From a virus: a stretch of 64,000 nt of DNA. The stretch's first letter is position 1. The number at the start of each line of letters is the position of its first letter. The position numbers and the translations under genes were made by a program. Shown one piece after another: positions 2,934 through 49,010 of this stretch. The DNA lies in the IMG/VR virus record IMGVR_UViG_3300046003_007336, positions 32,001-96,000 of that record; one strand, 5' to 3'. The notes under the pieces are model-generated. The model saw only the letters and a program-made list of their open reading frames with translations, was not told the DNA's origin and searched no databases.

Positions 2934-3311
2934 ATGACACGCACTCGCCCATCTTCACCCTTCGACACCAGCGACGCCCGCTGCAAGTTCCCGGTCTTCG
3001 GCGCCACCTGCGACGCGGCCCTGACGAAATCTGGCCGCACCGCGTCCGACATCGCCCGCGAATGCAAGATTTCGCCCGAGATGATGCGCGCCTATCGCCG
3101 GGGCTTCGCCTACCCCATGGATTCGACCCTGGCCAAGCTGGAAGCCGCCCTCGGCGTCACGCTGTCCGACAAGCCCAGGACCGGCATCATGGTTCGCGAC
3201 GTCGATCTGGCCACGCTGGACGCCATCGCCGCGCTGGCCACGGGTGCCGCGCAGGTTTCCCGCGACGGTGACCAGTACGTCTTCACCGTCCGGGTTCCTG
3301 CGGCGGCATAA
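2934..3311 (+). CDS. XRE-family helix-turn-helix regulator
   Basis: GRTASDIARECKISPEMMRAYRRG...TLAKLEAALGV HTH pattern. Confidence 0.7.
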   Translation: MTRTRPSSPFDTSDARCKFPVFGATCDAALTKSGRTASDIARECKISPEMMRAYRRGFAYPMDSTLAKLEAALGVTLSDKPRTGIMVRDVDLATLDAIAALATGAAQVSRDGDQYVFTVRVPAAA

Positions 3312-3347
3312 TCCCCTCGGGGAGTTCGGTGTGGTGCTGAACGGAAG

Positions 3348-3372
3348 AGGCGGGGCGAAAGCTCCGCCTTTT
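3348..3372 (+). terminator. Intrinsic terminator
   Basis: AGGCGGGGC-GAAA-GCTCCGCCT followed by TTT. Confidence 0.7.
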
Positions 3373-3411
3373 CATTTTGGTTTCCCAAAAGAGTGTGCAT
3401 ATACTGCGTAC

Positions 3412-4776
3412 ATGGACGCATCAGACATCATCGAACGCCTTGCGGCAGAACCAAGCCGCACCGGCAAAGAACAAATTCTCTATGACGCGTTCCAGAACGG
3501 TCACCGAGACTTCTTCATCGGCGCACAACTCGCCTACGACGCTCTCGTGAGCTTCGGGGTCAAGAAAGTCGCCAGCATCGAAGAGCCCGACGATGGCGAC
3601 CCCGGCACCTATACGTTCAAGGACTTCCTCGAACTCGCCGATGATCTGGCCAACCGCCGTCTGACCGGCCACGCCGCGCGCGACGCCATCAACGACGCCG
3701 CCAGCCGCTGCAACATCCGCACATGGCAGACTTTCTACCGCCGCGTTCTCCTGACGGATTTCAAATGCGGGTGCGAGACTTCCACGATCAACAAGATTCT
3801 GAAGAAGCTCAGCCAATCGAACCCCGAGGCTGAGAAATACATGGTCCCGGTCTTCGGCTGCCAGTTGGCCAAGGACGGCGCCGACCCCGCGCACGAGAAG
3901 AAGATCAAGGGCGTGCGGATGCTGGACGTCAAGCTCGACGGCGTCCGCCTCATCACCGTTCTGGACAAAGAAGCCGGAATGGTCACCCAGTTCAGCCGCA
4001 ACGGCCACGTCGTCGAGACTTTCGCTGAGGTCCGCGAGGCCCTGATGGGCCTGCTCGACGAACTGCCGGGCAGCGTCGTCCTCGACGGCGAGATCACCGC
4101 AGCATCCTTCCAGACGCTGATGACCCGCCTCCAGCGCAAGGTCGGCAAGAACACCGTCGAAGCCAAGCTGGCCCTGTTCGACATCATCCCGCTCGAAGAT
4201 TTCCGCAACGGTTTCTGCGCGACCTCGCAGCGGGAACGCCACGCTCACCTGATCTCGCTGGTGACCTCCGGCCTCCTGAAGGCCAAGACCGGCACTCTCT
4301 GCTACGTCGTGCCCAAGATCGAACTCGATCTCGACACGCCCGAGGGCCAGGAGGCTTTCGCCGAGTTCAATCGGCAAGCCATCGAAGCCGACTACGAAGG
4401 CATCATGATCAAGGACCCCGAGGCCGCCTACGAGATCAAACGCTCTATTGCGTGGCTGAAGATGAAGCCCTTCATCGAAGTCAGCCTGACCGTGACGGAA
4501 CTCCAACAGGGTGAAGCGGGCTCGAAATACGCCGACGTTCTCGGTGCCCTGATCTGTGAAGGCCGCGAAGACGGTAAGGACATTCGGGTCAGCGTCGGCT
4601 CCGGCATCACGGATGCGGAACGGAAGCTGTGGTGGAACAACCCCGGCCTCGTGAAGGGTTTCATCGCTGAGGTTCGCGCCGATTGCTTCAGCAAGGCACA
4701 GGACGGAGAAATCTGGTCGTTGCGTTTCCCCCGCCTGAAGGGCTGGCGCGGCCGGGTCGCTGGTGAGAAGCTCTGA
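3412..4776 (+). CDS. lig: ATP-dependent DNA ligase
   Basis: Motif I KLDGVR, motif III LDGEI, IIIa FDII, IV EGIMIK, V WLKMK, VI SLRFPR; start set at the ATG 6 nt after a TATACT -10 box. Confidence 0.95.
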   Translation: MDASDIIERLAAEPSRTGKEQILYDAFQNGHRDFFIGAQLAYDALVSFGVKKVASIEEPDDGDPGTYTFKDFLELADDLANRRLTGHAARDAINDAASRCNIRTWQTFYRRVLLTDFKCGCETSTINKILKKLSQSNPEAEKYMVPVFGCQLAKDGADPAHEKKIKGVRMLDVKLDGVRLITVLDKEAGMVTQFSRNGHVVETFAEVREALMGLLDELPGSVVLDGEITAASFQTLMTRLQRKVGKNTVEAKLALFDIIPLEDFRNGFCATSQRERHAHLISLVTSGLLKAKTGTLCYVVPKIELDLDTPEGQEAFAEFNRQAIEADYEGIMIKDPEAAYEIKRSIAWLKMKPFIEVSLTVTELQQGEAGSKYADVLGALICEGREDGKDIRVSVGSGITDAERKLWWNNPGLVKGFIAEVRADCFSKAQDGEIWSLRFPRLKGWRGRVAGEKL

Positions 4777-7171: not shown

Positions 7172-8865
7172 TGTCTTATGTCGATGCAATGTATGACCGC
7201 GCCAAGGACATCATCCACGTTGTGGAGCGCGTCAATGGTGAGCGAATCTATCGCGAGGACCGGGTAGAACACGTCTTCTACTACGGCCACCCGATGGGGA
7301 CCCACAAGTCGATTTTCGGCGACCCCTGCAAGCGATTCGCCATTCAGGATGGTCGCAAGTTCCGCAGCGAGGTCTTCAAGAAAAAGAAAGCCGGGGTCGA
7401 AATCTTCGAATCCGACATCCGCCCAGAGTTCCGCTATCTGGCCGATCACTACATGGGGGCCGAGACCCCTATCCTCAATGTCGGCTTCTTCGACATCGAG
7501 GCCGACTTCGATCTCGAACGCGGCTTCGCTCCGACCGATGACCCGTTCAACGCCGTGACGGCGATCACGCTGCACATTTCCAGCATGGACCGTCTCTTCA
7601 CCCTGGCCCTCATCCCCCCGACCATGACGCTCGAAGAGGGCATCGCCATCGGGGAGAAGTTCGAAGACACGATGATCTTCGACGATGAAGCGGAGATGCT
7701 GAGCAGTTTCCTCTACCTGATCGAAGACGTCGATGTCCTCTCGGGCTGGAACTCCGAAGGCTACGATATCCCCTACTTGGTCAACCGGGTGAAGCGTCTG
7801 CTCGGCAACGAGGCGTCAAAGCGTTTCTGCCTCTGGGATCAGTTCCCCCGCACGCGCGAGTACCTGAAGTTCGGCAAGGCCTTCAACACCTACGATCTCG
7901 TGGGCCGAGTTCACCTCGACTATCTGCTCCTCTATCAGAAGCACAACCCGCAACAGCTTCACAGCTACCGGCTCGACTACGTGGCTGAGATTGAAGTCGG
8001 GGACAACAAGGTCCCCTACGAGGGAACCCTCGACGATCTCTACAAGAAAGATTTCGAGAAGTTCATCGACTATAACCGCCAGGACGTCGCCCTGCTGGTC
8101 AAGATTGACGCGAAGCGGAAGTTCATCGAGCTAGCCAACCAGATCGCGCACTCAAACTGCGTGTTGCTGAAGACCACGATGGGCTCGGTGGCTCTGGTCG
8201 AGCAGGCGATCATCAACGAGATGCACAATCTGGGCTTCGTCGTGCCAGACCGGGTTCGCGAAGAAAAGCAGGAAAGCCTGCGACCAAAGCTGGCTCCGGC
8301 CGAAGACGATGATGAAGACGAGGATGAAGACGATGAGCGCACGCCCGTCGTCGGTGCCTACGTGGCCAAACCCAAGACGGGCATCCACCGAGAAGTCGCC
8401 TGCGTGGACATCAACTCCCTGTATCCGTCGTGCATCCGCGCGCTCAACATGTCGCCCGAAACCATCTTCGGACAGGTGCGCCCAGATGAGACCATGGCAC
8501 TCGTTCATGAGCGTATTGCGGCCGGGGTTCCGAGAGCAGAAGCATGGGAGGGGTTGTTCTGCACCCTGGAAGTTTCCCATATGATGGACCGGGATGACGC
8601 CCAACTCACGGTGGATTTCGAGGACGGGTCAACGGTTGTGATGACTGGGTCGCAACTTTACGATCTGGTATACGACCCCGCCTCTAGCCTGTGCATAACT
8701 GCAAACGGAACGCTTTTCCGAACCGACAAAGAAGGCATCATTCCCCAGCTTTTGGCGCAATGGTATTCGGAGCGTCAGAGCATGCAGGCGAAGGAAGCTG
8801 CTTTCAAAATTGCAGCCGGTGGCGTCGAGATTGATGACGAACTTGCTGTTTTGCTGGCCAACTAA
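7171..8865 (+). CDS. B-family DNA polymerase, N-terminal part (3'-5' exonuclease, motif A, first fingers helix)
   Basis: ExoI FFDIEAD, ExoII SGWNSEGYDIPYL, ExoIII YNRQDV, motif A DINSLYPSCI, GIIPQLLAQWYSERQ; ORF stops before motifs B and C. Confidence 0.93.
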   Translation: MSYVDAMYDRAKDIIHVVERVNGERIYREDRVEHVFYYGHPMGTHKSIFGDPCKRFAIQDGRKFRSEVFKKKKAGVEIFESDIRPEFRYLADHYMGAETPILNVGFFDIEADFDLERGFAPTDDPFNAVTAITLHISSMDRLFTLALIPPTMTLEEGIAIGEKFEDTMIFDDEAEMLSSFLYLIEDVDVLSGWNSEGYDIPYLVNRVKRLLGNEASKRFCLWDQFPRTREYLKFGKAFNTYDLVGRVHLDYLLLYQKHNPQQLHSYRLDYVAEIEVGDNKVPYEGTLDDLYKKDFEKFIDYNRQDVALLVKIDAKRKFIELANQIAHSNCVLLKTTMGSVALVEQAIINEMHNLGFVVPDRVREEKQESLRPKLAPAEDDDEDEDEDDERTPVVGAYVAKPKTGIHREVACVDINSLYPSCIRALNMSPETIFGQVRPDETMALVHERIAAGVPRAEAWEGLFCTLEVSHMMDRDDAQLTVDFEDGSTVVMTGSQLYDLVYDPASSLCITANGTLFRTDKEGIIPQLLAQWYSERQSMQAKEAAFKIAAGGVEIDDELAVLLAN

Positions 8866-21666: not shown

Positions 21667-21742
<76 letters not shown>

Positions 21743-21948: not shown

Positions 21949-22035
21949 CTGAACAGATAGTTTGATCATCGGGGGAGGCCGTGAGAGGCCAGTGCACTGA
22001 GGTGAAAATCCTCCACCCCCCGTCCAAACCATCTT

Positions 22036-22111
22036 GGGGTCTTAGCTCATCTGGTAGAGCGCAACACTGGCAGTGTTGAGGTGGCGGGTTCGAGTCCCGC
22101 AGATTCCACCA
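22036..22111 (+). tRNA. tRNA-Ala(GGC)
   Basis: Cloverleaf, G3:U70, CCA. Confidence 0.95.
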
Positions 22112-22116
22112 TTCAT

Positions 22117-22215
22117 GGGCGTGTCGGCGACAACGGGGGCTACCCCGCTAGGCCACCTGCGGTCGGCCCGAAAGGGGGCTTCAGGGAGAGGTGCAAGGCC
22201 TCTCGCGTTCCACCA
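22117..22215 (+). ncRNA. Non-canonical tRNA-like RNA with Ala acceptor identity
   Basis: Acceptor GGGCGTG/CGCG(T)TCC with G3:U70 and one bulge, A73, CCA; T-arm AGAGG-TGCAAGG-CCTCT; interior has extra hairpins and no standard D/anticodon arms. Confidence 0.6.
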
Positions 22216-22248
22216 ACCCCGGCGCAATCCCGCGCCACGAGAACCGAT

Positions 22249-22419
22249 ATGGACAAGAAGACGGAGAAGAAAAAGAAGAAACTGCTAGATCGCATCGCCG
22301 AACTGGAAACCGAACTCCGGCAGTCGCTGGGGAAGAAGGATAGTCGCACCGTCGAGATCGACGTGCCGTCCCAGATGCGGAAGATCGCCGATTTGCAGGC
22401 ACAAGTATCGCGGATGTAA
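22249..22419 (+). CDS. Small basic coiled-coil protein within the tRNA cluster
   Basis: MDKKTEKKKKKLLDRIAELETELRQ... Confidence 0.55.
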   Translation: MDKKTEKKKKKLLDRIAELETELRQSLGKKDSRTVEIDVPSQMRKIADLQAQVSRM

Positions 22420-22425
22420 ATCCAC

Positions 22426-22500
22426 GGGGATATAGCTTAACGGGTAAAGCGCGCCCCTCGCACGGGCAAGTCTGCGGTTCGATTCCGCATATCTCCACCA
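22426..22500 (+). tRNA. tRNA-Ala(CGC)
   Basis: Cloverleaf, G3:U70, CCA. Confidence 0.9.
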
Positions 22501-22505
22501 ACAAC

Positions 22506-22577
22506 GGGCGGCACAGCCAGTGCAATGGGAATAAGCTTTCCCAGAAGAGTGGGAGTGGCTCTCCCCTCCGTCCACCA
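22506..22577 (+). ncRNA. Degenerate tRNA-like RNA with Ala acceptor identity
   Basis: GGGCGG/CCGTCC with G3:U70, A73, CCA; hairpins TGGGAA/TTCCCA (loop contains AGC) and GGGAG/CTCCC. Confidence 0.5.
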
Positions 22578-22582
22578 AACAG

Positions 22583-22661
22583 GGGCCAGAGAACCACAGG
22601 CGTGGTTCGACGGTGAAGGGGGTCGCTCCTCCATGGGGTTCGATGCCCCACTGGTCCACCA
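22583..22661 (+). ncRNA. Non-canonical tRNA-like RNA with Ala acceptor identity
   Basis: 7-bp acceptor GGGCCAG/CTGGTCC (G3:U70), A73, CCA; canonical T-arm TGGGG-TTCGATG-CCCCA; 7-bp hairpin in place of the D-arm. Confidence 0.7.
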
Positions 22662-22689
22662 TTTCAACACCAACATCCTGGGAGGATGC

Positions 22690-23544
22690 TATGACACTGC
22701 GGGACGCCTAACAGAGACCTACCGGACTTTCTGCCTCGAACGCGGCATTGAGTTTCATGAGGTCAAGAGTGTGAGACCACACGACAACACGACCTTGTTC
22801 TGCCCTGCGGGGATGCAGCAGTTCAAGGAAGACTACCGGGGACATCGTCGCGGGACCGTATCCAATATTCAGTCCTGCATCCGGCTCAATGATCTGGATG
22901 AAATCGGCGACCAAACCCACCACCTAACCTTCGACATGATCGGGCTGTTTTCGTTCCGTGACATGAGCGTTCTGGAGACCATCGATTTCTGGTTCGAATT
23001 CCTCTCCAAGATTGGCATCAAGCCCGACGTGGTCACCATCCACCCGGACAAGATGCTGGACTGGCGAGAACTCTATCGGGGCCGCGACGTAGAAATACGG
23101 CCGGACCCGGAGTGCACGTGGTCGGACGGCGGCATGGGTGGATACTGCACGGAGTTCTACGTCAGAGGCGTGGAGATCGGCAACATCGTGAATACCAACG
23201 GAGATTCAATCGACGTCGGTTTCGGGATGGAACGCCTTCTCTGGGTTCTCGGCGAAGAAACGCCACCGCGTGGGGACATCCTGGTCCGCACCATCGACCG
23301 CATCGTTGAGTCGGGATACCGGCCCAGCGGCAAGCAGCAGGGTCATGTGCTCCGGCGCCTGATCGGGTTGCTGACAGACGAGGGCAGCCATCCCAACCAC
23401 CCCGAGGTCGTCAGCGAGACGTCCAGACGGGTGAAGCTCTCGGAACGCTTCGACCGCCTTTGGCCGAAGCATCAAGACAAGTCGCCAGAGTGGTGGCTGG
23501 ACACCCACGGTATCGTGGTGTCTGAAATGGTCCTCAGGGTGTAG
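22690..23544 (+). CDS. alaS: Truncated alanyl-tRNA synthetase (aminoacylation domain only); start codon uncertain
   Basis: TTLFCPAGMQQFK, NIQSCIRLNDLDEIGDQTHHLTFDMIGLFSF, GYCTEFY...EIGNIV, IDVGFGMERL, GHVLRRLI; about 285 aa with no editing or C-Ala domains. Confidence 0.85.
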   Translation, partial: YDTAGRLTETYRTFCLERGIEFHEVKSVRPHDNTTLFCPAGMQQFKEDYRGHRRGTVSNIQSCIRLNDLDEIGDQTHHLTFDMIGLFSFRDMSVLETIDFWFEFLSKIGIKPDVVTIHPDKMLDWRELYRGRDVEIRPDPECTWSDGGMGGYCTEFYVRGVEIGNIVNTNGDSIDVGFGMERLLWVLGEETPPRGDILVRTIDRIVESGYRPSGKQQGHVLRRLIGLLTDEGSHPNHPEVVSETSRRVKLSERFDRLWPKHQDKSPEWWLDTHGIVVSEMVLRV

Positions 23545-43441: not shown

Positions 43442-44107
43442 ATGAACCGTCGTACTTTCTTCGCCAGCATTCTCGGCGCCTCAGTTGCGGGCACGCTCGG
43501 CAGTCTCGCAGTTCCCGCATGGGCGCGCGCCGACGAGAGCCTGAACATCTATGTTCGCCTGATCGACCTCCAGAAGGCGATGCTGGCCAACCACGAAACC
43601 TGGAAGAGCGGCCCGGCGTTCGCCCACGTGCCCGAACTCGACGACCCCTTGGATACGCGCCCCGATGTCGAAAAGCGTCGCCGCCACCTCGTCGAACAGC
43701 GAATCGCTGACCGCCACGCGGCCCGCAAGAACTACGATCTGACCCCGGCTGACGCCGTCCTCGCGCACCTGAACGCCCATTTCGCCCCCGACGCCAGCGA
43801 CGTCAGCGAGGCCCTCGTGCGCCAAGCCCGCGCCGAGGCCAACGCGGTTGGCGGCGTGAAAATGTCCAGAACGGATTTCCGTCGCGAGGTCGCCATTGAG
43901 CAGGCTCGGCGAGAAGTCCGGGCCGTGTTCAACCGAGAAATCGAGATCGACACCATGTCGGAGGCCAGCATGCGCCGCGTGCTGAAATCGACGGTCGCCG
44001 TCGCGGTCGTCAAGGGCATGCTGTCGGTGCACAAGATGCCCCTCGACCCCAAGAAGATGGGCGCCTTCAACGAGTTCGCGACGAAGTTCAGGCACATCAT
44101 CCTTTAA
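43442..44107 (+). CDS. Exported protein with twin-arginine (Tat) signal peptide
   Basis: MNRRTFFASILGASVAGTLGSLAVPAWARA; GGAG SD, TTGACA promoter. Confidence 0.7.
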   Translation: MNRRTFFASILGASVAGTLGSLAVPAWARADESLNIYVRLIDLQKAMLANHETWKSGPAFAHVPELDDPLDTRPDVEKRRRHLVEQRIADRHAARKNYDLTPADAVLAHLNAHFAPDASDVSEALVRQARAEANAVGGVKMSRTDFRREVAIEQARREVRAVFNREIEIDTMSEASMRRVLKSTVAVAVVKGMLSVHKMPLDPKKMGAFNEFATKFRHIIL

Positions 44108-44142
44108 CTTGACAGTTTCCGGCCAAGGTGATTAAATAACTG

Positions 44143-44545
44143 CGTGTTGGTGACCAAATCAACCGCTTAGGCAGGACCGGGGTGCGAATCCCCGCGCCTC
44201 CACCAAAAACACATAGCCCGCTGAGATACGCGGGGAGCCGACTGTCATGTAAGCCGGGTTGGGGTTTCTAGAGCCCTGGCTATCAACGGTAGATCGGGGA
44301 CAGTCACAAGGCGGCTAGAGTTCCTTAGCGGGGGCAACAGTCTAGGCTCGCTACGACCGATATGGTCTGTGTGTTTTTGATGGGGGCGAATAGCTATCGA
44401 CTGATAGGCGTAGAGGCGAGAGACACCGGTAAGAAACGACCGAAAATCAGTTCAAATTTCTACCTGCCAACGACAACGTTGACATGGGTTCCTACGCCCT
44501 CGCGGCGTAAGGAACTCGGGGCCCACTGGGGGCCTAGCAACAGAA
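44143..44545 (+). ncRNA. ssrA: Two-piece (circularly permuted) tmRNA
   Basis: Acceptor piece ...GACCGGGGTGCGAATCCCCGCGCCTCCACCA ends at 44205; coding piece starts GGGGGCGAA at 44382 (G3:U70); tag ANDNVDMGSYALAA-stop at 44466-44510. Confidence 0.93.
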
Positions 44546-44635
44546 GGGGAGACTTCGGTCTCCCCACCTTTGTTTCGGTTGACCGTTTCGAAATCTCCGA
44601 CTAAACCGGTCTACGAAATAATCCGAGAAAAGCCC

Positions 44636-48924: not shown

Positions 48925-49010
48925 CCCCTCGTGGTGAAATGTAGACACGCAGTCTTGAGAGGGCTGTGCCTGTAATGGGTGTGCGGACTCGTTATCCGCC
49001 GAGGGGACCA
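48925..49010 (+). tRNA. tRNA-Leu(GAG)
   Basis: Type II cloverleaf, unusual T-loop CTCGTTA, CCA. Confidence 0.85.

Follow-up and report, generated by a model that had tools for sequence, protein, structure and literature searches.

Three candidate alanine-accepting tRNA mimics without an anticodon arm in the tRNA cluster of a giant phage

AlaRS reads the acceptor stem of its substrates through the G3:U70 pair and A73, and it alanylates minihelices and tmRNA. To our knowledge alanine is the sole amino acid whose synthetase ignores the anticodon, and tmRNA is the natural case we know of in which the acceptor end only is required for charging with alanine. Since the synthetase is blind to the anticodon, an RNA that keeps just the acceptor end can be charged. 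Small RNAs that are not tRNAs do occur in phage tRNA clusters. The cluster of phage T4 contains the small stable species 1 and 2 RNAs (rnaC/rnaD), which are co-encoded and co-processed with the tRNAs; we know of no alanine identity for them, and the RNAs described below are likened to them by description and not by sequence. tRNAs, synthetases and tmRNAs are known cargo of giant phages (PMC7162821), and a viral mini-AlaRS (TuAlaRS) charges a microhelix (PMC10036535). A 'TLD only' tmRNA of mycobacteriophage DS6A is the subject of a single sentence and a single table entry (Hudson et al. 2014, PMC4131195); beyond this remark no paper was found that deals with alanine-type tRNA mimics lacking an anticodon in the tRNA clusters of phages. 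New in the present case are the number and diversity of the mimics, three of different structure in a single operon, and the syntenic counterpart of one of them.

The window is a stretch of 64,000 nucleotides, part of a single virus sequence of 198.5 kb (IMG/VR record IMGVR_UViG_3300046003_007336) with 58% G+C and a CheckV completeness of 44%. The source virus is a giant phage in which the T4-type DNA polymerase is split; among named phages, Sinorhizobium phage Phosso and Agrobacterium phage Atu_ph07 come closest (47-52% identity). It encodes an alphaproteobacterial-type permuted tmRNA at 44105-44601, which is called by ARAGORN and Rfam. Six tRNA genes, Ala-UGC, Pro-UGG, Pro-CGG, Ala-GGC, Ala-CGC and Pro-GGG, are found by both ARAGORN and Rfam between 21667 and 23609, and no promoter or + strand terminator was predicted within this stretch. 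The features of the cluster that concern us are as follows.

21667-21742, + strand: tRNA-Ala(UGC), the first gene of the cluster (ARAGORN, Rfam)
21970-22026, + strand: P1, a possible fourth mimic, proline-type, 57 nt, between tRNA-Pro(CGG) and tRNA-Ala(GGC)
22036-22111, + strand: tRNA-Ala(GGC), followed after a 5-nt spacer by E1 (ARAGORN, Rfam)
22117-22215, + strand: E1, 99 nt, with an irregular GGGC...G(U)UCC-ACCA acceptor; counterpart at L197:1404-1502
22249-22419, + strand: ORF of 56 aa, basic and coiled-coil-like, without a family match, between E1 and tRNA-Ala(CGC)
22426-22500, + strand: tRNA-Ala(CGC), followed after 5 nt by E2 and, after 5 nt more, by E3 (ARAGORN, Rfam)
22506-22577, + strand: E2, alanine-type element, 72 nt
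22583-22661, + strand: E3, alanine-type tRNA-like RNA, 79 nt
22691-23544, + strand: mini-AlaRS, catalytic core only, a neighbour of E1-E3 whose partnership with them is not supported

The coordinates that the initial annotation gave for E1, E2 and E3 were found to be correct; all three elements lie on the + strand and end in UCC-A-CCA. It had ascribed to each an acceptor helix with G1-C72, G2-C71 and G3:U70 together with a T-arm-like hairpin. The helix is perfect in E3 and extends over 5-6 bp in E2, but E1 is irregular beyond the three pairs; the T arm is canonical in E3, while E1 and E2 have only T-like arms with 5-nt loops. E3 is the best formed of the three and a convincing tRNA-like gene. 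Its acceptor is a perfect helix of 7 bp including G3:U70, followed by A73 and an encoded CCA, its T arm has 5 bp and the loop UUCGAUG, and it contains the UUCGACGG motif. The D-position hairpin of 7 bp reported earlier was confirmed, with the loop AGGC, the GG of which could make the elbow contact. A short capped hairpin stands in place of the anticodon arm, and a hairpin of 5 bp is possible in the segment between D and T. The acceptor stem and the D hairpin pair with a probability of about 1; in the T stem the value is 0.5 for the outermost of the five pairs and 0.93 for the other four. ARAGORN labels E3 as 'tRNA-???' at 80% stringency. The decoding arm that it proposes ('gaag' in an 8-nt loop) was rejected, as it is 8-10 kcal/mol worse and has a pair probability of zero. 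The best Rfam match of E3 is tRNA-Sec (RF01852), below threshold (25.8 bits, E = 0.028, against a gathering score of 47). The resemblance lies in a D arm of the tRNA-Sec and allo-tRNA type (long stem, 4-nt loop), the stem being 7 bp and the loop 4 nt in E3. E3 differs from tRNA-Sec in its lower score, in the absence of an anticodon arm (17 anticodon-arm positions of the model are replaced by 4 nt) and in an acceptor/T combination of 7/5 rather than 8/5 or 9/4.

E2 is the least certain of the three elements. Its acceptor runs from G1-C72 through G6-C67 and is then broken by a C7.U66 mismatch, or alternatively forms 5 bp stacked on an 8-bp bulged hairpin; it too carries G3:U70, A73 and CCA. The fold consists of three hairpins around a cloverleaf-like four-way junction (z = -2.7), with an 'anticodon' loop of 6 nt and a T-like loop, UGGCU, of the 5 nt that had been claimed. 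E1 fits the proposed register for three pairs only; beyond these a bulged U is needed, and in the minimum-energy fold the register is shifted by one, leaving a 5-nt CACCA tail. Its fold energy is not significant against shuffles (z = -0.7). It folds as a four-way junction that includes a pair of long hairpins in the interior, of which one has a GAAA cap, and a T-like arm of 7 bp with the 5-nt loop GCAAG. E1 and E2 are without T loop and elbow, and E3 has a UUCRANY-type T loop and the D-loop GG. All three lack an anticodon loop of 7 nt and any anticodon arm that is credible on thermodynamic grounds (the probability of anticodon-like pairing in E3 is 0.0), which argues that E1-E3 are not decoders. 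As had been anticipated, none of them was picked up by ARAGORN with its default settings or by Rfam with the gathering thresholds, and no match of E1-E3 to the RF00005 tRNA model was obtained even at E<=10 with permissive filters (threshold 29 bits). A permuted-tmRNA reading of the region was rejected, the weak Rfam matches being merely a T arm plus CCA.

Helices by themselves are little proof of such elements, because a loose detector of 'acceptor + hairpin + CCA' scores a shuffled genome about as highly as the real one; taken alone it is not significant (about 8.6 chance matches per strand). Other observations do carry weight. When the interior of an element is shuffled, three hairpins closed by the acceptor result in only 7-10% of cases, for each of E1-E3. 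The + strand of the 198.5-kb record has 22 copies of TCCACCA, and six of these lie inside 920 nt of the cluster, three as the ends of real tRNA-Ala genes and three as the ends of E1-E3; a seventh copy in the record is the end of the tmRNA. Three extra copies in 645 non-tRNA bases have a Poisson P of about 4e-5, and none of the 16 remaining + strand words has a GGG partner. The spacers from tRNA to E1, from tRNA to E2 and from E2 to E3 are 5 nt every time. It was also observed that E1-E3 share GGGC...GUCC, that is C4:G69, with the L197 mimic described below. This signature is absent from the tRNA-Ala genes of both phages; in the three real tRNA-Ala genes of the cluster G4 pairs with C or U. Acceptor positions 5-7 differ among all six alanine acceptors (E1-E3 and the three tRNA-Ala) with pairing preserved, and G3:U70, A73 and CCA are invariant in all six.

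Relatives were sought in several collections. Neither E1 nor E2+E3 had a match among GenBank phages when exact and distant DNA matches were sought, an exact 27-mer of E3 had no match in IMG/VR (near-identical records may lie outside what these searches covered), and no homologue of E2 or E3 was found in any collection searched (GenBank phages, IMG/VR, viral, metagenome and genome). The phage contig L197 (Logan ERR1346823_20814) has the tRNA order Ala-GGC ... Ala-CGC ... Pro as here. An element of 99 nt (L197:1404-1502), likewise missed by ARAGORN and Rfam, separates the first two of these genes. Its acceptor is a perfect 8-bp helix (GGGCCAAG/CUUGGUCC) including G3:U70 and C4:G69 and followed by A73, its T arm is canonical, and it encodes CCA, which none of the nine ordinary tRNAs on L197 does. 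E1 and this element are equal in length and in place, after tRNA-Ala(GGC), with an identity of only about 45%. Their interiors align above shuffles (z = 2.8, p ~0.01); common to both are the unpaired motifs CAAC and GCU-R-GGC-M-ACC and a long hairpin with a CCC-GAA(A)-GGG cap, and compensatory changes are seen in two helices. Motif scans of viral, metagenome and genome collections returned a single true match, an identical copy of the L197 element (L337), so that only two distinct sequences underlie the homology of E1 with the L197 element. E1 is taken as a probable worn copy of a conserved 99-nt RNA as in L197. The other approximately 250 matches to the shared-motif pattern were discarded as chance, as were nearly all of 76 viral matches, in coding DNA, to the pattern GGGC..CCCGAARGGG..TCCACCA; 'TCCACCA' sites in the phage locus L012 belong to a repeated AT-rich intergenic motif and to coding sequence and are not tRNA-like. 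As a side observation, the L197 element contains four mutually complementary CCAAGG/CCUUGG segments and has two possible folds, one cloverleaf-like and the other, of minimum energy, made up of two separate hairpin domains; it may be a two-state RNA.

By DNA polymerase the closest phages are G001 and G002 (59-60% identity), in which the order of the tRNA cluster differs. G001, a genome of 424 kb and 100% completeness with a polymerase identity of 59% to the present phage, has an alanine-type mimic of 107 nt (L071:8240-8346) with a perfect acceptor, a T arm and CCA, located 6 nt past a tRNA-Ile gene. The interior of this RNA contains a second T-arm-like hairpin. The tRNA-Arg and tRNA-Ala genes of G001 (L071:8541-8613 and 8622-8693) have compact D arms with 4-bp stems and CGGA tetraloops, a likeness to the tRNA-Sec type of D arm. 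Conservation of G3:U70 in related phages, the lack of which the initial annotation would have taken as a refutation, was observed, as G3:U70, A73 and CCA are kept in the counterparts of L197 and G001; the tally of counterparts in these two is one for E1 and none for E2 or E3.

How far the elements correspond to the DS6A type of molecule could be assessed from a larger family. The pattern UUCGAC ... GGUUCGA ... UCCACCA retrieved at least 119 viral stretches, and a covariance model was built from an alignment of 45 distinct IMG/VR sequences of 62-85 nt (from L075-L154). The family is laid out as a G3:U70 acceptor, UGGuUUCGAC, a capped P2a helix, GGAC, a T arm and CCA, and covariation is present in the acceptor, P2a and T helices. 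Members score 52-75 bits with the model, E3 32.5, E2 10.3 and E1 9.0; ordinary tRNA-Ala genes score 28-29 and the acceptor piece of the tmRNA 29.4. E1-E3 share with DS6A and this family the alanine acceptor (G3:U70, A73, CCA), the lack of an anticodon arm and a phage origin often beside tRNA genes, and further resemblances are a T arm and, in E3, a UUCGAC-type motif. In contrast, E3 has the tRNA-Sec-like D hairpin with UGGUUCGACGG paired inside it, CUCCA where the family has GGAC, no GGAC/P2a closure and a low score, and E1 and E2 are without both sequence features, lack a T loop and score about 10 bits. In outline E3 resembles the tRNA-like domain of tmRNA, yet its membership of the family cannot be demonstrated; E1 and E2 do not belong to it. 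As compared to tRNA-Ala and the minihelices charged by AlaRS (PMC10036535), the elements have the same acceptor identity set and CCA end, 12-13 bp of stacked acceptor and T-like helix, and the position and spacing of tRNA genes. They differ from tRNA-Ala in lacking an anticodon loop, in having C4:G69 for G4:C69 and, in E1 and E2, in lacking a T loop, and they differ from minihelix and microhelix substrates in being natural genes and not laboratory constructs.

The suggestion that these are chargeable RNAs not used for decoding holds as regards decoding, and the AlaRS identity set is kept; charging is deduced from that set. The set (G3:U70 in a regular helix, A73 and CCA) is perfect in E3 and present on a 5-6 bp helix in E2, and in E1 it is satisfied only via the bulged U or the shifted register. 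E1-E3 can probably carry alanine without decoding. Selection on the acceptor end, presumably for processing and alanylation, is the simplest account of the constancy, in E1-E3 and their counterparts, of CCA and of the features read by AlaRS where everything else varies. Our preferred reading, to which as a whole we give a probability of about one half, is that E1-E3 are real co-transcribed tRNA-like genes of the alanine/proline tRNA operon whose products would be alanylated and act in trans as mimics or decoys of the acceptor/T half of tRNA-Ala or tmRNA, and that they form part of a loosely defined group of phage RNAs in which an alanine-accepting end is retained and other hairpins replace the anticodon arm. 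The elements would be excised from the operon transcript as tRNAs are, by RNase P at the 5' G and by trimming to the encoded CCA, and AlaRS would then alanylate them through G3:U70/A73. Lacking an anticodon loop they could not decode, and they may work in trans as alanyl-acceptor mimics, that is as ligands or decoys for proteins that read the acceptor/T half, such as AlaRS, EF-Tu, SmpB or nucleases targeting acceptor ends. The record, at 44% completeness, yielded neither SmpB (PF01668) nor a CCA-adding enzyme. A role as alanine donors for tRNA-dependent transferases, as had been proposed, finds no partner in it, enzymes of the FemAB and LPG-synthase types being absent from the same 44%.

Three other explanations have to be weighed against such a trans-acting role, and we rank them in the order in which they are taken up here. 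The elements could be decaying duplicates of tRNA-Ala genes without a function of their own, the acceptor ends of which persist as they are recent copies. E1 is degenerate as compared to its L197 counterpart (its T loop is lost and its acceptor bulged), the T loop is missing from E2, E2 and E3 are not conserved elsewhere, and odd tRNA genes are many in this phage lineage. Against this, the interiors have no residual likeness to the D or anticodon arms of tRNA-Ala; the helices that they hold instead, among them the 7-bp D hairpin of E3, are new, stable and perfect. Positions 4-7 vary with complementarity kept while G3:U70, A73 and CCA stay fixed, which speaks against recent copying. E1 and the L197 element are about 45% identical and yet preserve length, place and ends, and the latter encodes CCA amid tRNAs that do not. 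We therefore regard simple decay as unlikely. Somewhat less probable still is a function in cis, in which the elements would either serve as tRNA-like punctuation, so that the mRNAs of the mini-AlaRS and of the 56-aa ORF are set free, or form an operator for autorepression by AlaRS in the way that ThrRS represses its own message via an operator. Their positions are suggestive: E1 ends 33 nt ahead of the start codon of the 56-aa ORF, E3 ends 29 nt ahead of the ATG of the short ORF leading into the mini-AlaRS, a T-arm hairpin ending in CACCA occupies the equivalent spot before the SD/MSLRDA leader of L197, and the cluster has no predicted internal promoter or terminator. However, RNase P sites are already supplied by genuine tRNAs just upstream, the L197 hairpin is without a G3:U70 helix, and T-box or other cis-regulatory Rfam matches are absent. 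The genes past the L197 mimic sit on the opposite strand, so that this mimic is not a leader, and in other phages and in bacteria the mini-AlaRS leader is preceded by a promoter-like TATAAATA box and a small hairpin and not by a tRNA mimic.

The lowest rank goes to the possibility that E3 alone is a diverged 'TLD-only' mini-tmRNA which binds SmpB and disturbs or redirects host trans-translation. In E3 UGGUUCGACGG matches the conserved D-loop analogue of tmRNA (AUCGAC in the phage's own tmRNA, UGGuUUCGACgg as the family consensus), E3 is the top match of the window to the 45-sequence model at 32.5 bits, and there is precedent in the DS6A molecule and in tmRNA inhibition by such a molecule (PMC4131195). 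The score barely discriminates, because tRNA-Ala genes reach 28-29 bits where members have 52-75. Moreover, GGAC is missing before the T arm, the motif is sequestered in the 7-bp hairpin with a pair probability of about 1, and the phage already has a full tmRNA, with SmpB not found in the 44% complete record. On these grounds we consider this reading of E3 quite improbable.

The elements are not tied to the neighbouring enzyme. A six-codon ORF in another frame (MTLRDA-stop) leads into the mini-AlaRS, and the mini-AlaRS of L197 has the identical layout of SD and out-of-frame six-codon leader (MSLRDA-stop). The enzyme belongs to a large family whose nearest members are only about 60% identical (50-63% for the 17 IMG/VR loci and the best protein matches); most of the related loci are in bacterial chromosomes (Rhizobium, Inquilinus and others) or in phages without nearby tRNAs, and as to synteny only L197 is informative. 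The initial annotation had suggested that the elements, standing directly upstream, might be dedicated substrates of this truncated enzyme, and the comparative data lend this no support. G001 has a mimic and no mini-AlaRS (none was found in G001 or G002), the L197 mimic is 3.5 kb from the enzyme gene, and an alanine-type element was present at none of 25 other mini-AlaRS loci (178 kb of phage and bacterial sequence). A mimic without the enzyme and 25 enzyme loci without a mimic mean that an enzyme-substrate pairing is not supported. Among the eight loci that share the frameshift leader, no leader contains an alanine-type mimic; homologous genes have the promoter-like box and small hairpin ahead of the conserved leader, and L197 has, at the place of E2/E3, the T-arm-containing hairpin ending in CACCA without a G3:U70 helix. 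In three AT-rich phage loci the enzyme gene adjoins tRNA genes, and in two of these (L010 and L012) a permuted tmRNA as well, which fits an enzyme that serves alanine acceptors generally. It is an improbable extension of our data, although one worth stating, that a private, non-decoding alanylation circuit exists in which the mini-AlaRS loads the C4:G69-marked anticodon-less acceptors of the E1-E3/L197 type and not real tRNA-Ala, the alanyl-RNAs being used off the decoding path. If it were true, alanine could be added to stalled nascent chains or donated to some transferase.

Some further observations were made on the enzyme family. The SD with the six-codon ORF (M-T/S-L/Q-R-D-A-stop) lies at 22681-22716 of the window and recurs in L018, L019, L020 and L194-L198; this leader, about 110 nt ahead of the AGMQQF motif, is kept in phage and bacterial chromosomal homologues. 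L195 and L196 have an in-frame TTG (ATTG) instead of the leader ATG, and the versions of AT-rich marine phages start at a normal in-frame ATG. In L010 and L012 (about 3001-4400) the mini-AlaRS gene is followed by tRNA-Glu and the permuted tmRNA within 300 nt. The bacterial homologue P0077 (JGI 3300075153) lies between ybaB and recR, after dnaX, and the family is therefore also chromosomal, apparently as a housekeeping-linked bacterial paralogue.

An additional element of the cluster, P1, has a proline-type acceptor of six bp beginning with C1-G72, followed by U73 and CCA, with D-like and T-like hairpins and no anticodon arm (fold z = -1.8). Bacterial ProRS requires the anticodon, so P1 could hardly be charged. 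It hints at a role that is independent of charging, or at decay, and it is a caution against an account of the mimics by charging only.

Several distinct anticodon-less RNAs of the alanine type in one phage operon, with counterparts in related giant phages, suggest that the charging loophole has been used repeatedly. If they are charged, such RNAs would be small effectors of a new class, with the translation or tRNA-surveillance machinery of the host as their target, and they could provide natural scaffolds for orthogonal alanylation. ARAGORN and Rfam miss RNAs of this kind, and phage 'tRNA counts' thus understate the content of tRNA clusters.

Departures from the standard tRNA form are seen elsewhere in the window. 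The Rfam tRNA model also leaves out three of the five tRNA-Leu genes that ARAGORN calls. A tRNA-Leu(GAG)-like gene of 86 nt at 48925-49010 (+ strand), missed by ARAGORN and Rfam, has a perfect acceptor, CCA and the loop CUUGAGA, together with an odd T loop (CUCGUUA).
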